Origin: Bdellovibrionales bacterium
GTDB lineage: Bacteria > Bdellovibrionota > Bdellovibrionia > Bdellovibrionales > UBA1609
Direction: 5' to 3'
Assembly: GCA_027317865.1 (NCBI GenBank)
Contig: DAHVQG010000004.1
Coordinates: forward strand, 96,001 to 160,000
DNA: 64,000 nt
Part shown: in pieces, positions 3,268-54,770 of the stretch
How the letters are laid out: the number at the start of each line of letters is the position of its first letter
How positions within the stretch are numbered: position 1 is the first letter of the stretch
Translations under genes and position numbers: made by a program
The notes under the pieces: model-generated
What the model was told of the DNA's origin: nothing
Databases searched by the model: none
The model's input: the letters and a program-made list of their open reading frames with translations, nothing else

Positions 3268-5133
3268 ATGCGCAGACTTCGCCTTTACTTCATTTTGCTT
3301 ACGCGACGACTTTGGCGTCGACGTGGTTTGTGGCTCCGCGCGCTCATGGGGTGCGTACTCGGAATTGGACTTCTCACTATAGATCGCCAATCCGGTTACG
3401 ATTTACGCTTTCGCTTGCGAGGTAAGCAATCCGTCGACTCCAGTATCGTTATTTTGGCGATCGATAATTCAGCTTGGCGCTCGTGGCAACATTTATCGAA
3501 AACGGCTCCCATTGGGGATATGTATCGTAACCCGAAAGCATGGAAGCAAATTTTGGATCAACTTGTTTCGGAGCGGCCGCTTGCTGTAGGAGTCACCACA
3601 TACTTTGCACCAAATGTTTCGTCTGAATCCAATTCTCCGCTCCCGTCTGTATTCTCGAATTGGCGTGTCATCTGGGCCGCGCAACTTACCGAAGGCGGTC
3701 ACGTTTGGCTCCCGCCGTTTGCCTCACCGGTGAGGCGAAATTTTGGGCTTGTCCACTTCGTGCGTGATCGCGACGGAGTGATTCGGCGCTTCGGTACAGC
3801 ATCCGAACGCGTGCCTAACATCGCGGTACTCATGGCACGACGATTGCCCAACGTCAAAATTTCAAGTTTCAATATTTTGAAATCGAAGGAGCCGATTATT
3901 AATTATCGCGGCGATGCGGGCACGTTTGCTCACATCGGACTCACGAAATTTTTAAATCACGATTACCCGCAAAATTTCTTTAAACATAAACTCGTCATAA
4001 TCGGCACCCCCGATCTTTCGGGAGCGGAACTTCACACTCCTCTCGGCCAAATGTCTACCGCTGAAATACTTGCGAACATAATCGATAACATCCATTACGA
4101 TCGCTGGATTAAAAGACCTCCGTTTGCTGTTTTGGCTCTTTTTATTATTTTATTGGTGATGTTTTCGGCCTGGTTAACGTCGCGCTATCCGCAATTTTTG
4201 GCTTTTTTCATATTGATTTGGCTAAACATTTTTTATGTAACGTTTTCTCTGTGGTTATTTGACGTGCACTACCTGTGGCTGCCAATTTTACCGGCGGTGG
4301 CGGCCACATTCGGAACGTACGTCATATTTTTAAGCTTTCAGCTCACGCTCAAAGATTATCTGACCCAACAACTTGAAAACGAACACCAATTTCTACTTGG
4401 AGTGGAGCAGCTCAAAAACAATTTTTTAAGTTTAATATCGCACGACCTGCGTACGCCGATTGCTAAAATACAAGCGATCTGCGACCGGTTACTTGCTGAA
4501 AATCCGCAAATTGCCGTCGCACCTGATTTGGCGTCACTTCGAGAAGTGGCGACCGAACTCAATCGTTATATCGGTACGATCATCCAAATAACACGGGTTG
4601 AATCGAAGGACTTTCGCATTAACAAAGACGCTACGGACATTAACGAACTCATCGTACGAGCAAAAACGAGCGTGGAACCATTAGCCGCACAAAAGAAAAT
4701 TCATATTGAAACGAATCTTGAGCCCATGTTTTTAATCGAAGTCGATGCTGTTTTAATACACGAAGTAATCTTAAATCTCATCGAAAACGCTATTAAATAC
4801 ACTCCAGAAGGCGGCCGAGTGGGCGTTTCATCGCAAGAGGTTGATGGTCGTGTGATCGTTATGGTAGAAGATAGCGGAGTGGGTATACCCGAAACCGAAC
4901 AAGCGCACGTTTTCGAAAAATTTTTTCGAGGCGAGCACGGAAAATCGCATCCCAGAGGTTCGGGCCTTGGGCTCTATCTCGTCAAATATTTTGTTGAGCT
5001 GCACGGCGGGCAAATTATCTTGAAGAGCCAAGTTGGCGTTGGTACGAAAATCGGATTTTCATTGCCCATCGATGACCAACCTGAGCCTGAACTCGCGCAC
5101 GAAGAAGGAGCCACGAATGAGACTCACGCTTAA
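3268..5133 (+). CDS. CHASE2-domain membrane sensor histidine kinase
   Basis: IVILAID and DRDGVIRR CHASE2 motifs, three following TM helices, H-box SHDLRTP, N-box NLIENAIKY, G-boxes DSGVGI and GSGLGL. Confidence 0.9.
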   Translation: MRRLRLYFILLTRRLWRRRGLWLRALMGCVLGIGLLTIDRQSGYDLRFRLRGKQSVDSSIVILAIDNSAWRSWQHLSKTAPIGDMYRNPKAWKQILDQLVSERPLAVGVTTYFAPNVSSESNSPLPSVFSNWRVIWAAQLTEGGHVWLPPFASPVRRNFGLVHFVRDRDGVIRRFGTASERVPNIAVLMARRLPNVKISSFNILKSKEPIINYRGDAGTFAHIGLTKFLNHDYPQNFFKHKLVIIGTPDLSGAELHTPLGQMSTAEILANIIDNIHYDRWIKRPPFAVLALFIILLVMFSAWLTSRYPQFLAFFILIWLNIFYVTFSLWLFDVHYLWLPILPAVAATFGTYVIFLSFQLTLKDYLTQQLENEHQFLLGVEQLKNNFLSLISHDLRTPIAKIQAICDRLLAENPQIAVAPDLASLREVATELNRYIGTIIQITRVESKDFRINKDATDINELIVRAKTSVEPLAAQKKIHIETNLEPMFLIEVDAVLIHEVILNLIENAIKYTPEGGRVGVSSQEVDGRVIVMVEDSGVGIPETEQAHVFEKFFRGEHGKSHPRGSGLGLYLVKYFVELHGGQIILKSQVGVGTKIGFSLPIDDQPEPELAHEEGATNETHA

Positions 5134-21896: not shown

Positions 21897-22961
21897 CTAA
21901 TTCATAGCGAATTCAAACTGTTCGCTAAAAGGCCCCTCACATTTTGATAAGCCGGCTAACCCTTCAATCGACACCGACATATGTTGGGTAAAGAAATTCG
22001 AAACACAGCTAACTTGATATGGAGTTTGGACATCAACGCATGCCTTAAAATCAAGCGAACTAGGAGGGTCCCACCAATGCCGGCCCGTAATCATGAGTCC
22101 ACTGAGCCGCGTGAGACATTGAACGGGATATGTTGAACTGGCACGCAACGCAGTTAATGTTTCGCCATTGAATTTCTTAATGTCGTTGGCTACTTCACCT
22201 GAGTAATAGGTAATATTGGTAAATTGGTTTGCGGCGGCATTTGAGTACGCCCCACCACGGATCATGTCTTCACTCTGATTGTTGGTGTATCCCGTTAATT
22301 CTTCACTCGAGGTTATCCCAGCAAGCTTCCATTTACCGGAGCGAGTAAAGACATATAATGCTCCCCCAGAGGCGCCTTCCGAACTCGCACAATCACTAAA
22401 TATTTCGTCAACGTGTAGCCCACGTACCGTGCAATGTCCGGCAACAACTCGAGTGAATCCCTTAAATTTGTCGTAAGGAAAACCAACCGTTTCGGCGGGT
22501 TCCCCCACATACACCTCGGATGGCTGGGCCACTTCGGCAAACTTCACCCACTTAGGCGCCGGTGACCGCAAATGCACGACCGCAAAATCTTGATAGGTAA
22601 TCGGTATATTCCGCCACTGCCATTTGGCATCGTATGAATTATCAAAGTATTGACCTGGCCAACTTTCATCGACAGCTATTTTTGGACCAGCATGACCTTT
22701 ATAGAAAAATTCTATCGCATCTGGCTTCCATTCGCTTCCCCAAACGCAATGACCCGCTGTCAGGGCCCATTGGGGAGCAATCATAACGGCAGAACAGTAA
22801 GTGGGATGCGTTGACAACGATAACCTTTGTACCGCCAGTTCGGCTGGTTGCGTATCGTCTGAAACTTGCCGCGGGTCCTTTGCGCCAAACCAACTCGCCT
22901 GCGCACGAATTCCACTGAAGACCGCAGCAACTAGAATCAAAGCAACGGTAATGCCCCGCAA
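21897..22961 (-). CDS. Secreted trypsin-like (V8/S1B) serine protease
   Basis: Signal peptide; catalytic triad motifs LTAGHC, DFAVV and GASGG; Cys-containing C-terminal extension. Confidence 0.85.
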   Translation of the reverse strand: MRGITVALILVAAVFSGIRAQASWFGAKDPRQVSDDTQPAELAVQRLSLSTHPTYCSAVMIAPQWALTAGHCVWGSEWKPDAIEFFYKGHAGPKIAVDESWPGQYFDNSYDAKWQWRNIPITYQDFAVVHLRSPAPKWVKFAEVAQPSEVYVGEPAETVGFPYDKFKGFTRVVAGHCTVRGLHVDEIFSDCASSEGASGGALYVFTRSGKWKLAGITSSEELTGYTNNQSEDMIRGGAYSNAAANQFTNITYYSGEVANDIKKFNGETLTALRASSTYPVQCLTRLSGLMITGRHWWDPPSSLDFKACVDVQTPYQVSCVSNFFTQHMSVSIEGLAGLSKCEGPFSEQFEFAMN

Positions 22962-30874: not shown

Positions 30875-31795
30875 TCAAAAACACGACCGAGACACATACC
30901 CACGCTTGCTCCCGACCTGAACCTCAACCCAGCCGTTAATCACTTGATAAAGTGCGTAGCGGTGCCCTCTATAAATTTCACCGATTTTATTGGCACCACC
31001 GTCAGCCTGCGCCAGCACATCGCAGTTATACTTTGGTGCGCGCGCAATGACTTCTGTGGGAATTGAACTGACTTGCCGTTGTATTTGATTTCGCGCCGTC
31101 CGCATTTTGTTTTTTGCTTCATCCGCACGAAATGCTTTTTCACGCAACACTCGAAGCTGGTCATTTAGCACCTTTTGCTTGCGCCTCAATTGGATGATGT
31201 CTCTGGCGATTGCTTCGGTTTGCACTTTGTCCTGCTCAACCGTATTTTGAAGTTTCAAATTTTCACTTCTCTGCTGCGCAAGCTTTTGCGCGAGGTTTGT
31301 CTTCTGTGTCTTAGCCATCTGCAATTCGGAATTTGTGATTTTAAGTCTCGTCTTCGTCGCAGAGACCTTTGCCTCAATCTCAGCAACCCATTTCTTTGAG
31401 ACTTCTATTTGATGCTTGTAGAGACGCTCCATTCTTCGCTCTTGTGCGATTTGCCGGTCATAAATGCCGATCTGCCGCTTAGCAATGGCTTGCTTGATTT
31501 TAGCTTCATGTATTTGACGTATAGCCTGTAGGCGTAACTTTTCTTCGGCGAGCTTTTCTTCATGGTCTTGGCGTCGAAGTTGTGCGGCTTCCGTTCGCGC
31601 CTGAATAGAATTAGAAATCACGGAATCGACGTCACTCTCGACATCGTTGACGCTTTCAGCATGAGCCCGCTCAATACAAAAGCCGGTCACCGCTTCACCG
31701 GACAAAAGTGGAGATGTGAAGCCCGCAAAAACTAACCCGACTAATAGCAATAGCGCTCGAACAAGTTGATGTTTAGACGGCAATCCAATCTTCAT
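30875..31795 (-). CDS. Exported coiled-coil protein with C-terminal SH3b-like domain
   Basis: N-terminal hydrophobic segment, ~200-aa heptad-rich region, C-terminal KIGEI..G.....NGWVEV...KRGYV. Confidence 0.72.
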   Translation of the reverse strand: MKIGLPSKHQLVRALLLLVGLVFAGFTSPLLSGEAVTGFCIERAHAESVNDVESDVDSVISNSIQARTEAAQLRRQDHEEKLAEEKLRLQAIRQIHEAKIKQAIAKRQIGIYDRQIAQERRMERLYKHQIEVSKKWVAEIEAKVSATKTRLKITNSELQMAKTQKTNLAQKLAQQRSENLKLQNTVEQDKVQTEAIARDIIQLRRKQKVLNDQLRVLREKAFRADEAKNKMRTARNQIQRQVSSIPTEVIARAPKYNCDVLAQADGGANKIGEIYRGHRYALYQVINGWVEVQVGSKRGYVSRSCF

Positions 31796-31811
31796 AGTTC
31801 ACTCCAACTTC

Positions 31812-31838
31812 ATATCGGCAGTTTCATTTAAATGTATA
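31812..31838 (-). promoter_or_regulatory. Putative sigma28 (FliA) promoter
   Basis: Minus strand TATA-N15-GCCGATAT just upstream of the GGAG RBS of the 31795 gene (consensus TAAA-N15-GCCGATAA). Confidence 0.6.
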
Positions 31839-31950
31839 AATTTCAGGACCATACCCATTTTAGCACCTGCATCAATGTGTAGTTCCAGATTGGAGTTAAC
31901 TTTATCTGCAATATAAAAGGAGCTGATGGCAAATTTGCGCGGCCTAGACT

Positions 31951-31967
31951 TTGGCATAGGGATTGCT
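31951..31967 (+). promoter_or_regulatory. Sigma54 (RpoN) -24/-12 promoter
   Basis: TTGGCAT-AGGGA-TTGCT: GG at 31953-54 and GC at 31965-66 with exact GG-N10-GC spacing. Confidence 0.75.
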
Positions 31968-31977
31968 ACATGTTCTA

Positions 31978-32031
31978 AGCATCCCCCCTTGGCGGCCTGG
32001 CCCCCCTTACCCTCCAGGTCGCTTTTTTTTT
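31978..32031 (+). ncRNA. Candidate sigma54-dependent small RNA with C-rich single-stranded segments
   Basis: Starts 12 nt after the -12 box; two CCCCCCTT motifs; ends in a 9-bp stem plus T9. Confidence 0.6.
31992..32031 (+). terminator. Intrinsic terminator
   Basis: Stem GCGGCCTGG/CCAGGTCGC, 13-nt loop CCCCCCTTACCCT, then nine T. Confidence 0.8.
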
Positions 32032-32056
32032 GCCCAAAATCGTTTAACCTGAATGT

Positions 32057-32815
32057 ATGCTTTCGTTTTTTGGGCTTTTATTTTTTCTGCCGGCCGCGTT
32101 TGCGTTTCAAGTGTTTTTAGATGCGGGACATGGCGGTCAAGATCGAGGCGCCAGTTACGGAAAAATCGTCGAAAAAACGATTGCTTTAAGCGTCACCAAA
32201 CGGGTCGGCCAATTGTTGGAACAGCACTCGGGGATTCAAGTCACGTACAGCCGAACAACGGACGTGTACCGGTCGCTTCAGCAAAGAGTCAGTATGGCAA
32301 ACAAGGATCACCCAAATCTTTTTTTGAGTATTCATGTAAACGCATCGCCCGATCGCCGGGCTTGTGGACCCGATATTTATTTTCAGAACGTTTTAGATCC
32401 TGACCAAGAAACTTTGTTTTTGGCTAACCTCGAAAATCAAAATCTTCGTGACGCGAGCAATTCTCGCCCCTCTGAACACTATGTCAAAGATCCCGATGTA
32501 AACGCTATCATCGATGATCTGGAACGCGACCATCGCATACAGTTGAGCAGTATTTTTTCAGAGGATCTCCGCAAATATTGGGACGGCGATTACGCTGTTA
32601 GCAGTAGCCAAGATATCCGGCAAGCCCCGTTTTATGTGATTAGCAACGTCAATGCTCCAGCCGCATTGCTCGAACTCGGCTATTTGACCAACCCGATCGA
32701 AGGTCCCTTGCTCACTAAAGCCGCGTACCAAAACAAAATTGCCAAAGGTATAGTCAACGCCATAATCAAATACAAAGATGTCGTGGACAAGCGCTCACAA
32801 CAAAGCCTAGATTAA
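32057..32815 (+). CDS. N-acetylmuramoyl-L-alanine amidase (Amidase_3)
   Basis: FLDAGHGG.D.GA, EK, SIHVNA, QAPFYV and LLELGYLTN; signal peptide; no AMIN domain. Confidence 0.92.
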   Translation: MLSFFGLLFFLPAAFAFQVFLDAGHGGQDRGASYGKIVEKTIALSVTKRVGQLLEQHSGIQVTYSRTTDVYRSLQQRVSMANKDHPNLFLSIHVNASPDRRACGPDIYFQNVLDPDQETLFLANLENQNLRDASNSRPSEHYVKDPDVNAIIDDLERDHRIQLSSIFSEDLRKYWDGDYAVSSSQDIRQAPFYVISNVNAPAALLELGYLTNPIEGPLLTKAAYQNKIAKGIVNAIIKYKDVVDKRSQQSLD

Positions 32816-32819
32816 CGAC

Positions 32820-33548
32820 ATGCGCGCCGAAAATCGCCCTTACAATTCAATTCGAAAACTTGAAATAATCCCTCATGTCCTTCGTTATGCAGAAGGAAGC
32901 GTGCGGATTCATTTAGGGGAAACCCAATTAATCTGCTCAGCCACAGTGGAACCTAATATACCTAAGTGGTTAATGGGTCAGGGCAGCGGCTGGATTACGG
33001 CCGAATACGGCATGTTGCCGCGTTCGACCCACACGCGAATCCAACGCGAAAAAGCGATGGCTGGCGGGCGAGCGCAAGAAATTTCACGGCTAATTGGGCG
33101 CGCACTTCGCGCCGGTTTTGATCTCAAGGCTCTAGGCGAAAGACAAATCACGGTTGATTGTGATGTATTACAGGCCGACGGCGGTACGCGAACTGCCGCC
33201 GTATCAGGTGGGTTTGTGGCCGTATGTCTTGCGCTCCAGTTTTTGATGCAGCAAAACCAACTCAAACAACTCCCGATCAAAAGTTATATCGCGGCAATCA
33301 GCGCCGGGATTGGCCACGACGGATGTCTTCTCGATCTCGATTATGATGAAGATTCTAGCATTAAGACCGACATGAATTTTGTGATGAACGATCACAACGA
33401 ACTCGTTGAAATTCAAGGGACTGCCGAGGGTGGTACTTTTAGTTTGTCTCAGCTCAATCAGCTCCTTGAGCTTGCACAGCAGGGTTGCCAGCAAGTTTTT
33501 CGCGCTCAACAAAAAATTATTGGCGAGTTCTTCCCACTAAAACAGTAA
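32820..33548 (+). CDS. rph: Ribonuclease PH
   Basis: AEGS, GWITAEYGMLPRST, EISRLIGR and CDVLQADGGTRTA. Confidence 0.97.
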   Translation: MRAENRPYNSIRKLEIIPHVLRYAEGSVRIHLGETQLICSATVEPNIPKWLMGQGSGWITAEYGMLPRSTHTRIQREKAMAGGRAQEISRLIGRALRAGFDLKALGERQITVDCDVLQADGGTRTAAVSGGFVAVCLALQFLMQQNQLKQLPIKSYIAAISAGIGHDGCLLDLDYDEDSSIKTDMNFVMNDHNELVEIQGTAEGGTFSLSQLNQLLELAQQGCQQVFRAQQKIIGEFFPLKQ

Positions 33549-33570: not shown

Positions 33571-34155
33571 ATGGCACTTATGGAACTATGGCTCGCCTCA
33601 AACAACCGCGGCAAACTCATTGAGTTTAAAACTCTGCTGCCAACACTCGACATTCATGCACAAAATGAATTGCCGGTATACAGTGCCCCCGTAGAAAACG
33701 GTAAAACGTTTGAAGACAACGCGCGAATCAAAGCTCGATCACTCAAATCTGTTAAAACTGGCGTTTGGGTTGTAGGTGAAGACTCTGGGCTTGAGGTCAG
33801 CGGTTTAAACAATTTCCCGGGCATTTATTCAGCCCGTTATGCAGGCGACCATGCGAGCGATGCGGAAAATGTCGCAAAGCTTTTAAAAATGCTCAACTTG
33901 CGTTCCCCTCACAACCGAGCGGCACGATTTGTTTGCACAATTGTCGCTTATTCGCCCGAGGGGCAGGAATTCGTGATGACCGGAACTTTTGATGGCCAAA
34001 TTTCTGAAAAGGTCAGGGGTAACGCCGGTTTTGGCTACGACCCGATTTTCATCCCCAATAATGAAACCCAAACACTGGCTGAACTGGGCATAACTCGCAA
34101 AAACCAAATTTCACATCGCGCAGCCGCGATTCGAAAACTGGCCGAGCTATTTTAG
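33571..34155 (+). CDS. rdgB: dITP/XTP pyrophosphatase
   Basis: SNNRGKLIE, DSGLEV, PGIYSARY, GFGYDPIF and KNQISHR. Confidence 0.96.
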   Translation: MALMELWLASNNRGKLIEFKTLLPTLDIHAQNELPVYSAPVENGKTFEDNARIKARSLKSVKTGVWVVGEDSGLEVSGLNNFPGIYSARYAGDHASDAENVAKLLKMLNLRSPHNRAARFVCTIVAYSPEGQEFVMTGTFDGQISEKVRGNAGFGYDPIFIPNNETQTLAELGITRKNQISHRAAAIRKLAELF

Positions 34156-39063: not shown

Positions 39064-40175
39064 GTCAGTCTAATCTTTGGATCAAAATAGGTGTAGAGAA
39101 TATCGACAATAAAATTCGCTAAAATTAACATTGTGGCAAACACAAGCGTGACGCCAAGAACCATTGGGTAATCGCGATTGGTCACGCTCATTATGAAGTG
39201 CTTACCAATGCCGGGAATGTTAAAAATGTCTTCGACTACAAACGAACCCGAGAGAACGTACGCGGTGACGGGGCCAACGTAGGCCAAAACCGGAATGAGA
39301 GAATTTTTAAGCATATGCTTAAACAATATCGTTCGCTGTTTGAGGCCTTTGGCCTTGGCAGTTCGAACAAAATCCGATCGTGAGACTTCAAGAACACTTG
39401 ACCGCGTCAGACGAGCGATAACCGCGGCGGGTTGCATACCTAAAACTATAACAGGCAAAATATAAAAAGTGGTGCCATTCCACAACGCCACGGGCAGAAG
39501 ATTCCAGCCAAAACAAAAAATCGTAATGAGTATCGGCGCGGCTAAAAAACTGGGAATTGAAATAAACGAGGTAGCCGCGATCATGGTGACGTTGTCCTTC
39601 CAGGTGCCGTGATTGGCGGCCGCAAAAACTCCAGCTGGAATGCCCACCATTAATGCCAGAATCATCGCAAAAATCCCAAGCTGCATTGAAGCCGGTAAAC
39701 TCTCGGCAATAATGGATGAAACTTCACGACCAACGTAGGTATAGGAATAACCGAGATGACCAGTAGCAATTCCTTCGATGTAGCTAACATATTGCTTATA
39801 GATGGGCGCGTTTAAATCGTATTTCGCATCGATTGCCGCTTTCACCTGTGGCGGCAATGCTTTATTTTCATCAAATGGCCCGCCTGGGATGACCCGCAAC
39901 AAGAAAAATGTGATCGAAGCAATCGTGAAAATAACAAATAACGTCTGCATGAGACGTTTCAGAACATAGCCGGTCAATCCGTGAGTCGTTGCGTGAAAAA
40001 CAAGAAATACAATAACAAGAACAACGTCGCCGATAATGACACTGTTGGGGATTAAAAATCCGGCAAAGCTCCATATAGCGGTGAAGACAATTCCGGCGAG
40101 TGCCGCAATCGGCAAAATGATCCCGAGTTGGCGGATGACGGGATGACTCGCGCGACGTATGTCTTCGGCTGTCAC
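39060..40175 (-). CDS. oppB: Oligopeptide ABC transporter permease OppB (N-terminally extended)
   Basis: YVLKRL, PGGPF, RTAKAKGL, HMLKNSLIP and NRDYP. Confidence 0.92.
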   Translation of the reverse strand: MTAEDIRRASHPVIRQLGIILPIAALAGIVFTAIWSFAGFLIPNSVIIGDVVLVIVFLVFHATTHGLTGYVLKRLMQTLFVIFTIASITFFLLRVIPGGPFDENKALPPQVKAAIDAKYDLNAPIYKQYVSYIEGIATGHLGYSYTYVGREVSSIIAESLPASMQLGIFAMILALMVGIPAGVFAAANHGTWKDNVTMIAATSFISIPSFLAAPILITIFCFGWNLLPVALWNGTTFYILPVIVLGMQPAAVIARLTRSSVLEVSRSDFVRTAKAKGLKQRTILFKHMLKNSLIPVLAYVGPVTAYVLSGSFVVEDIFNIPGIGKHFIMSVTNRDYPMVLGVTLVFATMLILANFIVDILYTYFDPKIRLT

Positions 40176-41794
40176 TTCACAATCTCCATTTTCTGCGGAT
40201 AAAATTTCATAAGCGAATTCAACGGATAATTTTTGATTCGCGAACTCACGAGATACTGAGACCGGTAAAAGTAAATCGGCACGACAACAGAGTCTTTGTC
40301 GAGCAATAGCTCTTGTGCCTCGTCGTAAAGTTTTTGGCGCTTTTGTTCACTAAACACAGTCGCCGCTTCTCGAACGAGATGATCGTATTTTTTATTGGCC
40401 CAATTCGTGTCATTGTTGGCGTTATCTGACTCGAACAAATTCATAAACGTATTGGCGTCTGGATAATCCGCGATCCATCCGAATCGAAACATCGGATAAG
40501 CTTTCGCCTGCATTGTGCGAAGATACGTTTTCCATTCTTCATTGGTAAGTTCGACTTTGATGCCGAGATTGGTTTTCAATTGCTCCTGGATAATCTCCGC
40601 TATGCGTTCATGATTTTCATCCGTATTGAACGCAATTTTAAGCCGCGGAAATTTCGACCGGTCTTTGTATCCGGCCTCGTCGAGTAATTTTCGCGCTTTC
40701 GCCGGATCGTATTTCGGTCCGATATTCGGATTGTATCCCACGAGTCCCGGTGGAATGAGCGTCGTTGCGGGCATTTCACTTCCGCCCATAATTTTATTAA
40801 TTTGGTCGCGGTTAATGGCCATGTTAATCGCCTGGCGGACTTTCACATTATTAAGCGGCGGCATTTTCACGTTAAGGCCGAAATAATAAACGCCAAGTGT
40901 TGTAACAATTCGATATTGCGGCATCGTCCGCACCGTACGAATGTCATCGCTCGGAATTTCGTCAAGAGCATCGAGCTGGCCGCGATTAAACATGCTAAGC
41001 GCGGTCGATTGATCTTGAACGATAAGCCCCAAAATATATTTAATTTTTGGTTTACGGCCGAAATATCCGTCATTGCGTTGAAGCACGACGGCTTTGCCGT
41101 GATCCCACTTTATTAACTTGTACGCTCCCAGAGTTTGGATGTGACTCGGATCCGTCCAGTGATTTCCCCACTTTGCGATAATATCTTTGCGAATCGGAAA
41201 GGTGCACTCGTTACCCAAAATCGCGGGGAAGAAACTTTCGGGCCGCGCAAGATTGACGACAAGTTCACCTTTTTTGTTGAGTCTGACGCCCACTTTACTG
41301 AAATTTTTAATTTTGCCTTCGAAATAGGCTTTGGCGTTTTTAATTATAAACAAATAATTTGCGTACAAAGCAGCCGTTTTGGGGTTTAGCAATCGCTGCC
41401 AGCTATCAATGATTTGTTGGCCGGTAAATGGAACGCCGTCCGTCCATTTAACATCTTGCCGCAACGTGAACGTCCAAGTTTTCATGTGGTTGGACGACCG
41501 CCAAGAAGCCGCCAAATCAGGCAATACTTGAACTTTACCGTTTTTGAATCCGTAACGAACAAGCCCGTCCATCATCGCATCGGCAATGCGGGAAGAAGTC
41601 GTGTCACTCATTAACGTCCAGTCAAGAGTCGGCGGCTCGGTTATGATGTTCCAACGCAGGGTTTGGTTCAACGGCAGGCCGTAGTCCACCTGGTTTCTGC
41701 GCGTACACGCGGTGATGAAAAAAGCATTGATGATTAAAAACGTGCCGGCCAACAAAGCGGCCGACCGTGCAGATACACGTTGAAAACGGCTCAT
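40172..41794 (-). CDS. oppA: Oligopeptide ABC transporter substrate-binding lipoprotein
   Basis: Lipobox ITAC, EPPTLD, TWTFTLR...WTDG, GAYKL..W and GWIADYPD. Confidence 0.92.
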   Translation of the reverse strand: MSRFQRVSARSAALLAGTFLIINAFFITACTRRNQVDYGLPLNQTLRWNIITEPPTLDWTLMSDTTSSRIADAMMDGLVRYGFKNGKVQVLPDLAASWRSSNHMKTWTFTLRQDVKWTDGVPFTGQQIIDSWQRLLNPKTAALYANYLFIIKNAKAYFEGKIKNFSKVGVRLNKKGELVVNLARPESFFPAILGNECTFPIRKDIIAKWGNHWTDPSHIQTLGAYKLIKWDHGKAVVLQRNDGYFGRKPKIKYILGLIVQDQSTALSMFNRGQLDALDEIPSDDIRTVRTMPQYRIVTTLGVYYFGLNVKMPPLNNVKVRQAINMAINRDQINKIMGGSEMPATTLIPPGLVGYNPNIGPKYDPAKARKLLDEAGYKDRSKFPRLKIAFNTDENHERIAEIIQEQLKTNLGIKVELTNEEWKTYLRTMQAKAYPMFRFGWIADYPDANTFMNLFESDNANNDTNWANKKYDHLVREAATVFSEQKRQKLYDEAQELLLDKDSVVVPIYFYRSQYLVSSRIKNYPLNSLMKFYPQKMEIVK

Positions 41795-44457: not shown

Positions 44458-45852
44458 ATGAAAACAAAGTCCATTTTTGTGTGTCAAAATTGCGGCGCCG
44501 AACGGCCCAAGTGGGAGGGTCAATGTCGCGACTGCGGCGCATGGAATTCATTAGTCGAAGAAACTGTCACAAATGCTCCCAAAGGAGCGAGATCGTGGTC
44601 CGTTGGTTCGTCTGCTGGCAATACTTCAGACACCCGCATCGCCGCTTTGCAGCTGGACTCCGTCATTGAAATTAAAGACTCCCGACGATGGTCAACCGGC
44701 ATGAAAGAACTGGACCGTGTTTTAGGGAGCGGACTCGTACCCGGAAGTTATGTGTTACTCGGCGGCGATCCAGGAATTGGCAAAAGCACGCTGCTTATGC
44801 AAATGGCCGGACAATTGGCGCGCGAAGACCGGCGTGTTTTGTACGTTTCGGGCGAAGAAAGTGTGGAGCAAACCGCGCTGCGCGCGCAACGCCTGGGAGT
44901 TCGCACTGCGCAGGTTAAAGTTGCGAGCGAAAGCCGTTTAACTAATATTTTGAATTTGGTGGACAAAGAAAAACCGAACGTGTTGATTGTCGATTCGATT
45001 CAAACGATTTATGTGGAAGAAATTCCATCGGCGCCTGGTACAGTCTCACAAGTGCGCGAATGCGCAGGCCGTTTAATGGCTGTGGCGAAAAGTCAAAACG
45101 TTGCGGTTTTTTTGGTCGGACACATCACAAAAGACGGCTCAATCGCCGGCCCGAAAACCCTCGAACATATGGTCGATACGGTTCTGTCTTTTGAGGGCGA
45201 TGCAAACTATCAATACCGGCTTTTGCGCGCGCAAAAAAATCGTTTTGGCCCGACAAATGAGCTTGGCGTTTTTCAAATGGCAAGCGAAGGACTTATCGAA
45301 GTTGAAAATCCCTCCGAAATGTTTTTGGCCGAACGTGGTAAAAGTCTAATCGGCTCAACTGTTTTTGCGGCAATCGAAGGTTCGAGACCTCTTCTGTGCG
45401 AAGTGCAAGCTCTCACCTCTTCAACTTACATGGCGACCCCACGGCGGACAGCGATCGGTGTCGACGTCAACCGCGTTCACCTGCTTGCCGCCGTACTTGA
45501 TAAACACCTCGACCGCGATTTTTCTCGTAACGACGTATTCGTCAACGTCGTAGGAGGGCTACGACTCACTGAACCGGCCGCAGACCTCGCGATTGCCGCG
45601 GCGATGCTTTCAACGTTAGGTTCAAAGCCACTCCCCGCGAATACGGCGCTATTTGGAGAAATCGGCCTGACCGGCGAAGTGCGGGCCGTCACCTTCGCTG
45701 CCGAACGTTTGCGCGAAGCCGAAAAATTGGGTTTTCAATCGGTGATTCTGCCGAAAAACTGCGAGCGCTTAATTAAAGCAAATCACGCAAAAACGCTCAC
45801 AACTAAAATGAATTTACGTTTTATCCGGCACGTGGACGAGCTAGTGAATTAA
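44458..45852 (+). CDS. radA: DNA repair protein RadA/Sms
   Basis: CQNCG..CRDC zinc finger, GDPGIGKST, KNRFG and a Lon-like C-terminus. Confidence 0.97.
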   Translation: MKTKSIFVCQNCGAERPKWEGQCRDCGAWNSLVEETVTNAPKGARSWSVGSSAGNTSDTRIAALQLDSVIEIKDSRRWSTGMKELDRVLGSGLVPGSYVLLGGDPGIGKSTLLMQMAGQLAREDRRVLYVSGEESVEQTALRAQRLGVRTAQVKVASESRLTNILNLVDKEKPNVLIVDSIQTIYVEEIPSAPGTVSQVRECAGRLMAVAKSQNVAVFLVGHITKDGSIAGPKTLEHMVDTVLSFEGDANYQYRLLRAQKNRFGPTNELGVFQMASEGLIEVENPSEMFLAERGKSLIGSTVFAAIEGSRPLLCEVQALTSSTYMATPRRTAIGVDVNRVHLLAAVLDKHLDRDFSRNDVFVNVVGGLRLTEPAADLAIAAAMLSTLGSKPLPANTALFGEIGLTGEVRAVTFAAERLREAEKLGFQSVILPKNCERLIKANHAKTLTTKMNLRFIRHVDELVN

Positions 45853-45997
45853 TACGCCACCTCGAATTCAAGCCAAGCTCACGATAAGGCCCTAATTCCG
45901 CATATAAGAAAATGTTTGAGCATTGTGGCCGAATCACGAAAAAATTTCTCGAAAGCAAAAACCTGCGGCACAATTTATTGTTTAACAGTAGCCACCT

Positions 45998-46101
45998 ATA
46001 GATTGTTTATGCCATAAATCTGTTCGGGTTACCATATTGCCAATACGGTGTTGGCTATGGTTTTGGGGTCGACGTTTCGCGAGCGTTCGGCCTTTTTTTT
46101 T
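45998..46101 (+). ncRNA. Candidate structured small RNA (three consecutive hairpins)
   Basis: Hairpins at 45998-46023, 46031-46061 and 46067-46092 plus T9, in a 276-bp convergent intergenic region. Confidence 0.4.
46067..46101 (+). terminator. Intrinsic terminator
   Basis: GGTCGACGTT..AGCGTTCGGCC stem followed by nine T. Confidence 0.7.
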
Positions 46102-46128
46102 GGGGAGTTGGGGCCGCGCCGGCAGCAG

Positions 46129-53786: not shown

Positions 53787-54770
53787 TTATTCGATGACGG
53801 CGCCGCTCTTATCCGTTTCTTGGCTTCGATAAAATTCATAAATAATCCCGGCATAAAAGCTTTGGTTTTGTATGGAGCGCATAAGAGGGCTTCTACGATT
53901 AGCGGAGCCGGCAAAAAACGAACTATCAACGCCGCAAAAATAGAGAAATCGACTTTTTGACGAAGGCGCATGATGATAAGTGAATCCGACGTAATCATAC
54001 ATATAACCAGGCTCAGCCGAATAAGCTGGCCGACTCGGAGTCGCATACTGAGGTTCTACATCGTAAAAATAACGAGTCAGCTCGCTCGTCCCCCAAAGTG
54101 CTCCGTAATAGGCGACAATTGTTCCGTGTGGATCAAATCCTAAACCATGCGAAAAAACCAATTCAGGATTAAAATCAAATCCGCGGCCATCAATTTGCGT
54201 AAAATCCGTCGACATCACCCATCGCACTGGTAACGAAAAATTGAGGGTCATTCGAGGTTTGTGAATGAGGTGAATCAAAACACGCGGACCAAATTCGCCC
54301 ATCCAATCGAGATTGGGCATGCCTTGACGAGCCTGATCATCAGCGCTGTTAACCGGAAAAGACCCCGCAACGCTGGCATCGATATCAAGTTCCGTACTGT
54401 TCAAAAATACACCGCGAAGATTTCCGTTTTGGTCCGCACGTAAAAAATTACCGCGATATATGAAATACGGGACGGGTAACCACACGTAGTGCATTTGATC
54501 GGCGCCAGGATAATCATCGAGTAGCGCGCTTGAAACTCCGACACCCATTTCAAGCTTCGGTAGCGGCTTTTGCCCCCCGCTTCTGGCCCGGATGTTTGCC
54601 AAACTCAAACCCGTCATTGCGTCTTGGGTACTCGCGGTCAATCGGCTCGGGGCCTGGGCGTTAGCGTAACAGCAATAGCCGATATTTATTGCCAATAGTA
54701 CAACTGCTGCGATTAGACCCAATATTTTTTTCGCAACCTTGACCTGAGCGCAATCCATGCGCACCGCCAT
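53787..54770 (-). CDS. MipA/OmpV-family outer membrane protein
   Basis: DYPGADQ...PVPYFIYRG, RQGMPNLD, YFYDV, RPAYSA, N..SPL and terminal aromatic YEF. Confidence 0.78.
   Translation of the reverse strand: MAVRMDCAQVKVAKKILGLIAAVVLLAINIGYCCYANAQAPSRLTASTQDAMTGLSLANIRARSGGQKPLPKLEMGVGVSSALLDDYPGADQMHYVWLPVPYFIYRGNFLRADQNGNLRGVFLNSTELDIDASVAGSFPVNSADDQARQGMPNLDWMGEFGPRVLIHLIHKPRMTLNFSLPVRWVMSTDFTQIDGRGFDFNPELVFSHGLGFDPHGTIVAYYGALWGTSELTRYFYDVEPQYATPSRPAYSAEPGYMYDYVGFTYHHAPSSKSRFLYFCGVDSSFFAGSANRRSPLMRSIQNQSFYAGIIYEFYRSQETDKSGAVIE

Follow-up and report, generated by a model that had tools for sequence, protein, structure and literature searches.

A candidate sigma-54-driven, C-rich small RNA of about 50 nt upstream of the amidase-rph-rdgB genes of a Bdellovibrionales bacterium

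The present analysis concerns a 64,000-nt stretch of contig DAHVQG010000004.1 (assembly GCA_027317865.1, positions 96,001 to 160,000 of the forward strand) of a Bdellovibrionales bacterium, which is referred to below as the window and provides all coordinates. Within it, the plus-strand segment 31952-32031 lies in a 261-nt intergenic region (31796-32056) flanked by two divergent gene starts. We tentatively read this segment, with confidence a little short of even, as the gene of a sigma-54-driven small RNA (sRNA) of about 50 nt, which belongs to the kind that masks ribosome-binding sites (RBS) by C-rich motifs, and the terminator of which also throttles the operon of an N-acetylmuramoyl-L-alanine amidase, RNase PH (rph) and RdgB/Ham1 (rdgB). 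We infer from the sequence that RNA polymerase carrying sigma-54, switched on by an enhancer-binding activator, would initiate near 31978, and that most transcripts would stop at a hairpin followed by U9, yielding a non-coding RNA of approximately 50-54 nt. Two C6UU seeds, situated in the 5' tail and in the loop of this RNA, together with CCCUCC at the loop edge, would pair in trans with G-rich RBSs and block the start of translation, a mode of action as in the C-rich sRNAs LhrC, RsaE/RoxS, sX13 and 6C. Three candidate targets were recognized in the window, namely a secreted protease of the trypsin-like type, a peptide-binding protein of the OppA type and a member of the MipA family. The leak past the terminator would supply the amidase and possibly rph and rdgB; since the U-run is followed after 25 nt by the amidase ATG and no promoter was recognized in between, the same terminator would also limit read-through into these genes.

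The putative promoter is a sigma-54-type motif, TGGCAT-AGGGA-TTGCT (31952-31967, plus strand), with the GG of the -24 element at 31953-54 and the GC of the -12 element at 31965-66, at the canonical spacing. The sequence TGGCATAGGGATTGCT differs in one position from the strict consensus TGGCAC-N5-TTGCW and is the sole exact match in the window to the relaxed consensus TGGCAY-N5-TTGCW, for which 0.16 matches were expected. Among the four window sites with at most one mismatch to the sigma-54 motif it alone is found outside open reading frames (ORFs), the other three being intra-ORF. No exact match to the relaxed consensus was revealed on either strand of 621,497 bases of 80 other loci, which are described below. 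The transcription start, placed at about 31978, was predicted from the distance that usually separates it from the -12 element. A perfect 10-bp palindrome, GCAAATTTGC (31929-31938), is centred approximately 45 nt upstream of this start and may represent a protein-binding site.

The 54-mer beginning at the predicted start folds as a single hairpin with a minimum free energy (MFE) of -16.4 kcal/mol, which accounts for 78% of the ensemble (z-score -2.48; 3 of 200 shuffles were equally stable). Its 13-nt 5' tail (31978-31990) is unpaired in both the MFE and the centroid folds. The 5' arm of the stem (31991-32000) forms ten consecutive pairs with the 3' arm (32014-32023), seven of them G-C, including a closing G-U pair and one internal G-U pair, and encloses a 13-nt loop (32001-32013). 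The T9 run (32023-32031), the U-tail of the RNA, begins within the 3' arm, as its first U pairs with G31991. The hairpin (-15.9 to -16.4 kcal/mol) and the following U9 have the G+C-rich stem and the U-run of an intrinsic (Rho-independent) terminator. Being situated between two divergent gene starts, this terminator ends no upstream gene, which speaks for the sRNA reading. It was missed by a consensus terminator scan, because the 13-nt loop exceeds the limit of 3-8 nt set in the scan. The original prediction, made from the sequence alone, had placed the -24/-12 promoter, the start, the tail, the hairpin and the U-run at these same positions, and both the reading of the sequence and the fold bear this out; the hairpin stands as proposed, and the length of its stem, counted there as nine pairs, is corrected to ten with two G-U pairs.

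The 8-mer CCCCCCTT is duplicated 18 nt apart (31983-31990 and 32001-32008). As the RNA motif CCCCCCUU, its first copy falls in the tail and its second one in the terminator loop, i.e., both are situated in the unpaired parts of the predicted fold, as had been claimed earlier, which is the shape expected of a C-rich anti-RBS sRNA as far as the prediction goes. The second copy is followed by UUACCCUCC (32007-32015), which extends 2 nt into the stem, and an anti-Shine-Dalgarno-like CCCUCC is located at the 3' edge of the loop. The C6UU seeds presumably resemble the anti-Shine-Dalgarno end of 16S rRNA, no gene of which is present in the window. The display of the 8-mer twice, the unusually large 13-nt loop and the long U-tail fitting an sRNA terminator all point toward an RNA acting in trans. 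In the whole window CCCCCCTT is found in four copies against 1.02 expected, and 6 of 100 shuffles reach this number. The plus strand of the window contains 14 C runs of at least six nucleotides and not a single G run of such length, which agrees with the prevalence of genes on the minus strand with GGG-GGG codons.

Taken separately, each part of the element is modestly unusual; their combination is not plausibly a product of chance. The one exact sigma-54 match of the 64-kb window is intergenic and stands 71 nt upstream of one of the two T9 terminator-like sites with a hairpin in the window, the other of which has a 3-nt loop versus 13 nt here. A T-run of at least nine preceded by a hairpin of -15 kcal/mol or lower was encountered once in the window, the mean over 40 dinucleotide shuffles being 0.2. 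Our own arithmetic on the two shuffle rates, taken at face value (0.16 x 0.2 x 100/128,000), gives approximately 2.5e-5 for the co-occurrence of a promoter, a tail, a hairpin and a U-run in an 80-nt intergenic segment of a single strand. Judging from this rarity, the promoter motif and the terminator are probably real signals.

The segment could not be assigned to any described RNA family, in agreement with the original prediction: the search of the whole window, both strands, against Rfam 15 at the gathering score gave no matches. In the E-value mode, applied to 31700-32200, the best overlapping model was RF00519 (suhB/mmgR, an alpha-proteobacterial sRNA), weakly aligned with 31976-32038 over the C-rich 5' part and the U-run; its 14.0 bits versus the gathering score of 41 (E = 3.2) are at the chance level, and the candidate is not a member. 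A covariance model built on the single sequence and run over the window with the filters off returned the element itself with 89.8 bits and next a hit of 9.2 bits (E = 2.6), i.e., no paralogue. A mobile-element origin was rejected, since the segment 31940-32060 had no blastn match among plasmids and phages. The unit had also been described as free of ORFs. Strictly this does not hold, as an ORF of 64 aa (31926-32120, plus strand) spans the whole unit and another one of 52 aa (31799-31957, minus strand) overlaps the -24 element; in substance it does, since neither ORF is credible. No match to either, not even to themselves, was found in a collection of 5.8 billion proteins, and the 64-aa ORF had no Pfam match. 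A small-protein reading of the two ORFs was thus rejected for lack of homologues.

Complementarity to possible targets was assessed with the tail and the loop only, compared with the regions from -30 to +10 of the 57 ORFs of the window, to which all ORF-based tests refer; random sense windows and shuffled seeds served as controls. Duplexes of the whole RNA with 90-nt initiation regions had been discarded as unrealistically long, and the seed-only tests were used instead. Perfect 9-nt complements to the loop were found in 2 of the 57 initiation regions versus 0.18 (random sense windows) and 0.14 (shuffled seeds) expected, and two or more such complements were obtained in 0.8% of 1000 seed shuffles. 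One of them, UAAGGGGGG, lies directly at the RBS of the ORF 21897-22961, encoding a trypsin-like protease with a signal peptide; the other one, GGAGGGUAA, ends 1 nt before the AUG of the ORF 40172-41794, encoding a SBP_bac_5/OppA-type binding protein. The ORF 53787-54770, encoding a MipA-family protein, has a 7-nt match to the tail. By duplex energy the protease RBS ranks first with both the tail (-20.4 kcal/mol) and the loop (-18.1 kcal/mol), the median of the best seed over the 57 genes being -6.0 kcal/mol, and it is followed by BamA, MipA and OppA. In 7 of the 57 genes, GGGG occurs in the 20 nt that precede the start. The 9-nt loop complements, which exceed both controls, lend tentative support to the anti-Shine-Dalgarno idea of the original prediction; shorter matches stay near the level of the shuffled seeds (see below).

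A broader form of the proposal, in which the terminator throttles amidase-rph-rdgB, the C6UU seeds silence envelope and peptide-scavenging genes with G-rich RBSs (including the protease, the OppA/MppA-type protein and MipA) and the element, with this dual role, would found a new RNA family, appears unlikely at present. If it were true, one enhancer-binding signal would coordinate cell-wall cleavage with the envelope and peptide uptake in this uncultured bacterium.

A number of observations weigh against the reading of the element as an sRNA gene. At least one exact match to the relaxed sigma-54 consensus appeared in 15 of 100 shuffles, and the motif with up to two mismatches was not enriched (29 sites versus 34.7 expected); the rate of strong T9 terminators given above is likewise a weak argument if taken alone. 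Efficient intrinsic terminators seldom have a loop as large as 13 nt. Upstream of the promoter motif, the search for an enhancer repeat gave no clear candidate, the repeats recognized there being the palindrome at 31929-38 and an inverted repeat (31796-31807/31890-31901). Among the 57 ORFs of the window there is no rpoN, no gene of an enhancer-binding protein (AAA+ activator) and no hfq. In favour of the promoter, in other members of the group, rpoN has been reported in Bdellovibrio bacteriovorus as bd0843 (PMC3464611, consulted in part) and is listed for Bacteriovorax marinus in the accessible part of PMC3526173; a literature search on Hfq in Bdellovibrio gave nothing usable. With respect to the targets, shuffled seeds do about as well as the real ones with shorter matches, the observed count being reached by 38% of them at 7 nt and by 10% at 8 nt. 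The complementarity test was also post hoc and covered 57 genes, and C-rich seeds favour Shine-Dalgarno regions anyway, so that its outcome is suggestive. Finally, a position 25 nt before a gene start is equally expected of a leader.

The comparison with related loci adds to this side of the balance. The loci were collected by a profile search of genome contigs, the query being an alignment of the amidase with its six best homologues. Among the matches listed, 80 loci were obtained, all with distant amidases (best identity 39%), and the genome to which the window belongs was not among them. Eight of these 80 loci (L001, L029, L043, L025, L060, L039, L052 and L076) display the amidase-rph-rdgB order; they comprise two Bdellovibrionia/Bdellovibrionaceae metagenome-assembled genomes (L001 and L029), Archangium (Myxococcota), Geobacter, Methylomirabilia, Rokubacteria, WOR-3 and one 'delta proteobacterium'. 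As the order is common to loci of several phyla, the operon is old. The Rph and RdgB proteins of the window are closest to those of L001 among the matches listed (56% and 49%, respectively, by tblastn). The element is missing upstream of amidase-rph-rdgB in both L001, where a 91-nt spacer separates the amidase from a same-strand gene of 1185 aa, and L029, where the spacer is divergent and 62 nt long. The single-sequence covariance model gave nothing significant in all 80 loci either (searched as 16 + 64, best 10.7 and 15.1 bits, E of at least 0.7). A -24/-12 scan of positions 3501-4010 of the eight syntenic loci revealed one site with two mismatches and without TTGC, in L052; the scan covers the upstream regions incompletely, because the amidase ORF begins farther upstream in several loci. 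Since the relatives are distant (34-39% amidase identity), the absence in L001 and L029 says little and is weak evidence either way. By analogy with the sRNAs of B. bacteriovorus, the lack of homologues fits a lineage-restricted element.

The strongest alternative regards the segment as a plain 5' leader or attenuator of the amidase operon, with the sigma-54 motif or a weak upstream sigma-70-like site as the amidase promoter and the short RNA as a by-product; the hairpin and U9 would set a low read-through or be relieved by a factor binding the C-rich repeats. It was already offered in the original prediction, and we regard it as somewhat unlikely. The genes concerned, assigned with Pfam/NCBIfam and all on the plus strand, are the Amidase_3 N-acetylmuramoyl-L-alanine amidase (32057-32815), rph (32820-33548) and rdgB (33571-34155). 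The amidase has few close homologues (59, 57, 52, 45, 40 and 40% identity in a protein search), with the lengths of which (236-272 aa) its start position agrees. Its ATG follows the U-run on the same strand, at the place of a 5' untranslated region (UTR), after a spacer of 25 nt (32032-32056). This spacer has no Shine-Dalgarno-like sequence, as is the case with many other window genes, and no sigma-70-like promoter at either the strict or the relaxed threshold. Amidase transcripts must therefore cross the terminator, which gives the leader interpretation real weight. With the order of the three genes old and widely kept, some upstream element must drive the operon. The relaxed sigma-70 scan recognized two weak sites only (8/12), with the -10 elements ending at 31842 (plus strand) and 31848 (minus strand). 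The two identical 8-mers could also serve as a protein-binding platform.

Against a regulated attenuator speak the folds of 31978-32110 and 31796-32060, in which no antiterminator or competing helix was found, the terminator hairpin persisted, and the stability did not exceed that of shuffles (z of -0.53 and +0.54, respectively). Nor was any aptamer or other cis-regulatory element recognized by Rfam. A G-rich partner of the C-rich motifs is lacking where translation of the amidase starts (duplexes of -4.2 and -0.5 kcal/mol), and the arrangement is not kept in L001 or L029. A strictly activator-dependent promoter followed by a strong terminator would also be odd as the sole driver of the housekeeping genes rph and rdgB. 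This objection is softened by a sigma-70-like site at 32739-32766 (plus strand; TTGCCA, 16-nt spacer, CATAAT; 10/12), which falls within the 3'-terminal part of the amidase gene, at 54 nt from the start of rph, and may be an internal promoter serving rph-rdgB separately from the amidase. Thus, the position of the ATG and the promoterless gap retain the leader proposal, and the lack of an antiterminator fold counts against it.

Another explanation denies any dedicated unit: the sigma-54 site would be a chance or silent one, the hairpin with the T-run either a relic or an insulator of a general kind in a region of divergent promoters, and the C-runs functionless. It draws on the shuffle rates and the flat count of two-mismatch motifs given above, and on the failure to find the element in L001, in L029 or, with the covariance model, in the 80 loci. 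In Escherichia coli, widespread intragenic or inactive sigma-54 binding has been reported (PMC4591121, consulted in part), which also speaks for this explanation. The joint chance of approximately 2.5e-5, the perfection of the stem over ten pairs and the placement of the two 8-mer copies exactly in the two unpaired parts make it quite improbable. 

Hardly credible, in our opinion, is translation-coupled attenuation, in which an upstream transcript would carry the 64-aa ORF and a closely following ribosome would melt the terminator, letting transcription proceed into the amidase gene: this ORF does have a Shine-Dalgarno-like AAGGAG and spans the entire terminator, and the operon does hold rph and a nucleotide-cleansing enzyme, but the ORF has neither a homologue nor a Pfam match, being absent from the protein collection, reaches 64 nt into the amidase gene in a different frame, has just 3 nt between AAGGAG and its ATG, could rely only on a weak (8/12) upstream promoter and would make the sigma-54 motif within it a coincidence. 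Such logic resembles that of the enterobacterial pyrBI and pyrE attenuators.

The divergent neighbour of the element is a gene of 306 aa (30875-31795, minus strand). Its product combines a long coiled coil with a hydrophobic, signal-like N-terminus, and its C-terminal part appears SH3-like by eye; no Pfam match was obtained for the protein up to an E-value of 5, except for coiled-coil noise. Its location beside the amidase allows a speculation that it may be an amidase regulator. The arms of the 12-nt inverted repeat mentioned above (31796-31807 and 31890-31901) are 92% complementary and 82 nt apart, and the repeat could make GGAG, the Shine-Dalgarno sequence of the 306-aa gene, inaccessible, if the mRNA starts upstream of 31901. 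The opening bases of the same gene in the minus-strand reading, ATGAAGATTGGA (31795-31784), recur as a near-copy, ATGAAGTTGGAG (31813-31802), which makes a mini-ORF of four codons. The second T9 terminator (T-run 46093-46101, plus strand) lies in a convergent intergenic region (45853-46128), approximately 240 nt past the stop of a radA/sms-like coding region (44524-45852, plus strand). The 113 nt reaching up to it (45990-46102) fold into three hairpins (-35.3 kcal/mol, z = -2.88, 1 of 200 shuffles as stable) with no Rfam match and, on the strength of this predicted fold, could represent either a further sRNA candidate or a 3' UTR with structure. Neither tRNA nor tmRNA genes were found in the window.

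Returning to the preferred interpretation as a sigma-54-driven sRNA, the candidate would share a free-standing sRNA gene, a -24/-12 promoter and an intrinsic terminator with Qrr, GlmY and Pxr, none of which it matches in Rfam at the gathering score. Qrr and GlmY are longer than the candidate and consist of several hairpins. As regards lineage, the precedent that comes closest is Pxr of Myxococcus (former Deltaproteobacteria). The dependence on sigma-54 is described in the accessible parts of the papers on Qrr (PMC10162802) and GlmY (PMC3045617), and for Pxr a predicted sigma-54 promoter, a length of 108 nt and a predicted triple stem-loop are given in the part of PMC5568312 consulted. According to the same part, Pxr adjoins the gene of its sigma-54 activator, whereas no activator gene is present near the candidate in the window.

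With respect to the proposed mode of action, the closest likeness is to LhrC1-5 of Listeria monocytogenes, in which a redundant C-rich motif, displayed both by a single-stranded segment and by the loop of the terminator, pairs with the Shine-Dalgarno sequence of the targets; these sRNAs are induced via a cell-envelope stress system, and Hfq is dispensable for their regulation of lapB (PMC4132741, consulted in part). The common feature is the redundancy of the C-rich motifs with one copy in the terminator loop. LhrC differs from the candidate in having two stem-loops and three UCCC sites, in being multicopy and Gram-positive, and in the type of promoter, as described in the available part of PMC4132741; in the candidate, by contrast, a single hairpin is combined with two C6UU motifs and a sigma-54-type promoter, and no sequence similarity to LhrC is seen. 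In Xanthomonas, the C-rich loops of sX13 act without Hfq on G-rich RBS motifs (GGGG or longer), as reported in the accessible part of PMC3771888. The C-rich loop of the candidate is reminiscent of sX13, and the seven window genes with GGGG echo its class of G-rich RBSs. Unlike the candidate, sX13 has three stems and three loops, and a sigma-54 promoter is not mentioned in that part of PMC3771888; no similarity at the Rfam level was found. By sequence and predicted structure, the candidate belongs to none of LhrC, sX13, Qrr, GlmY and Pxr.

Within the phylum, eight sRNAs of the attack phase with no homologues outside the species have been reported in B. bacteriovorus HD100, merRNA being described in the same source (PMC3627812, consulted in part). 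The candidate resembles them in its intergenic location, in the phylum and in the lack of outside homology. In the table rows and the text available from the same source (PMC3627812), the HD100 sRNAs differ in being 98-207 nt long, in three of them having FliA-type promoters and in one carrying a c-di-GMP riboswitch, and none is described there with a sigma-54 promoter.

The regulatory RNAs described so far in Bdellovibrionota are few. As both sigma-54-driven sRNAs and C-rich anti-RBS seeds are established, the candidate would be a further instance of them and would introduce no new principle. If real, it would be, for the phylum, an sRNA of unusually small size under the control of sigma-54, easy to dissect, and it would link an enhancer-dependent signal with a peptidoglycan amidase operon and with candidate targets in the envelope and in peptide uptake.

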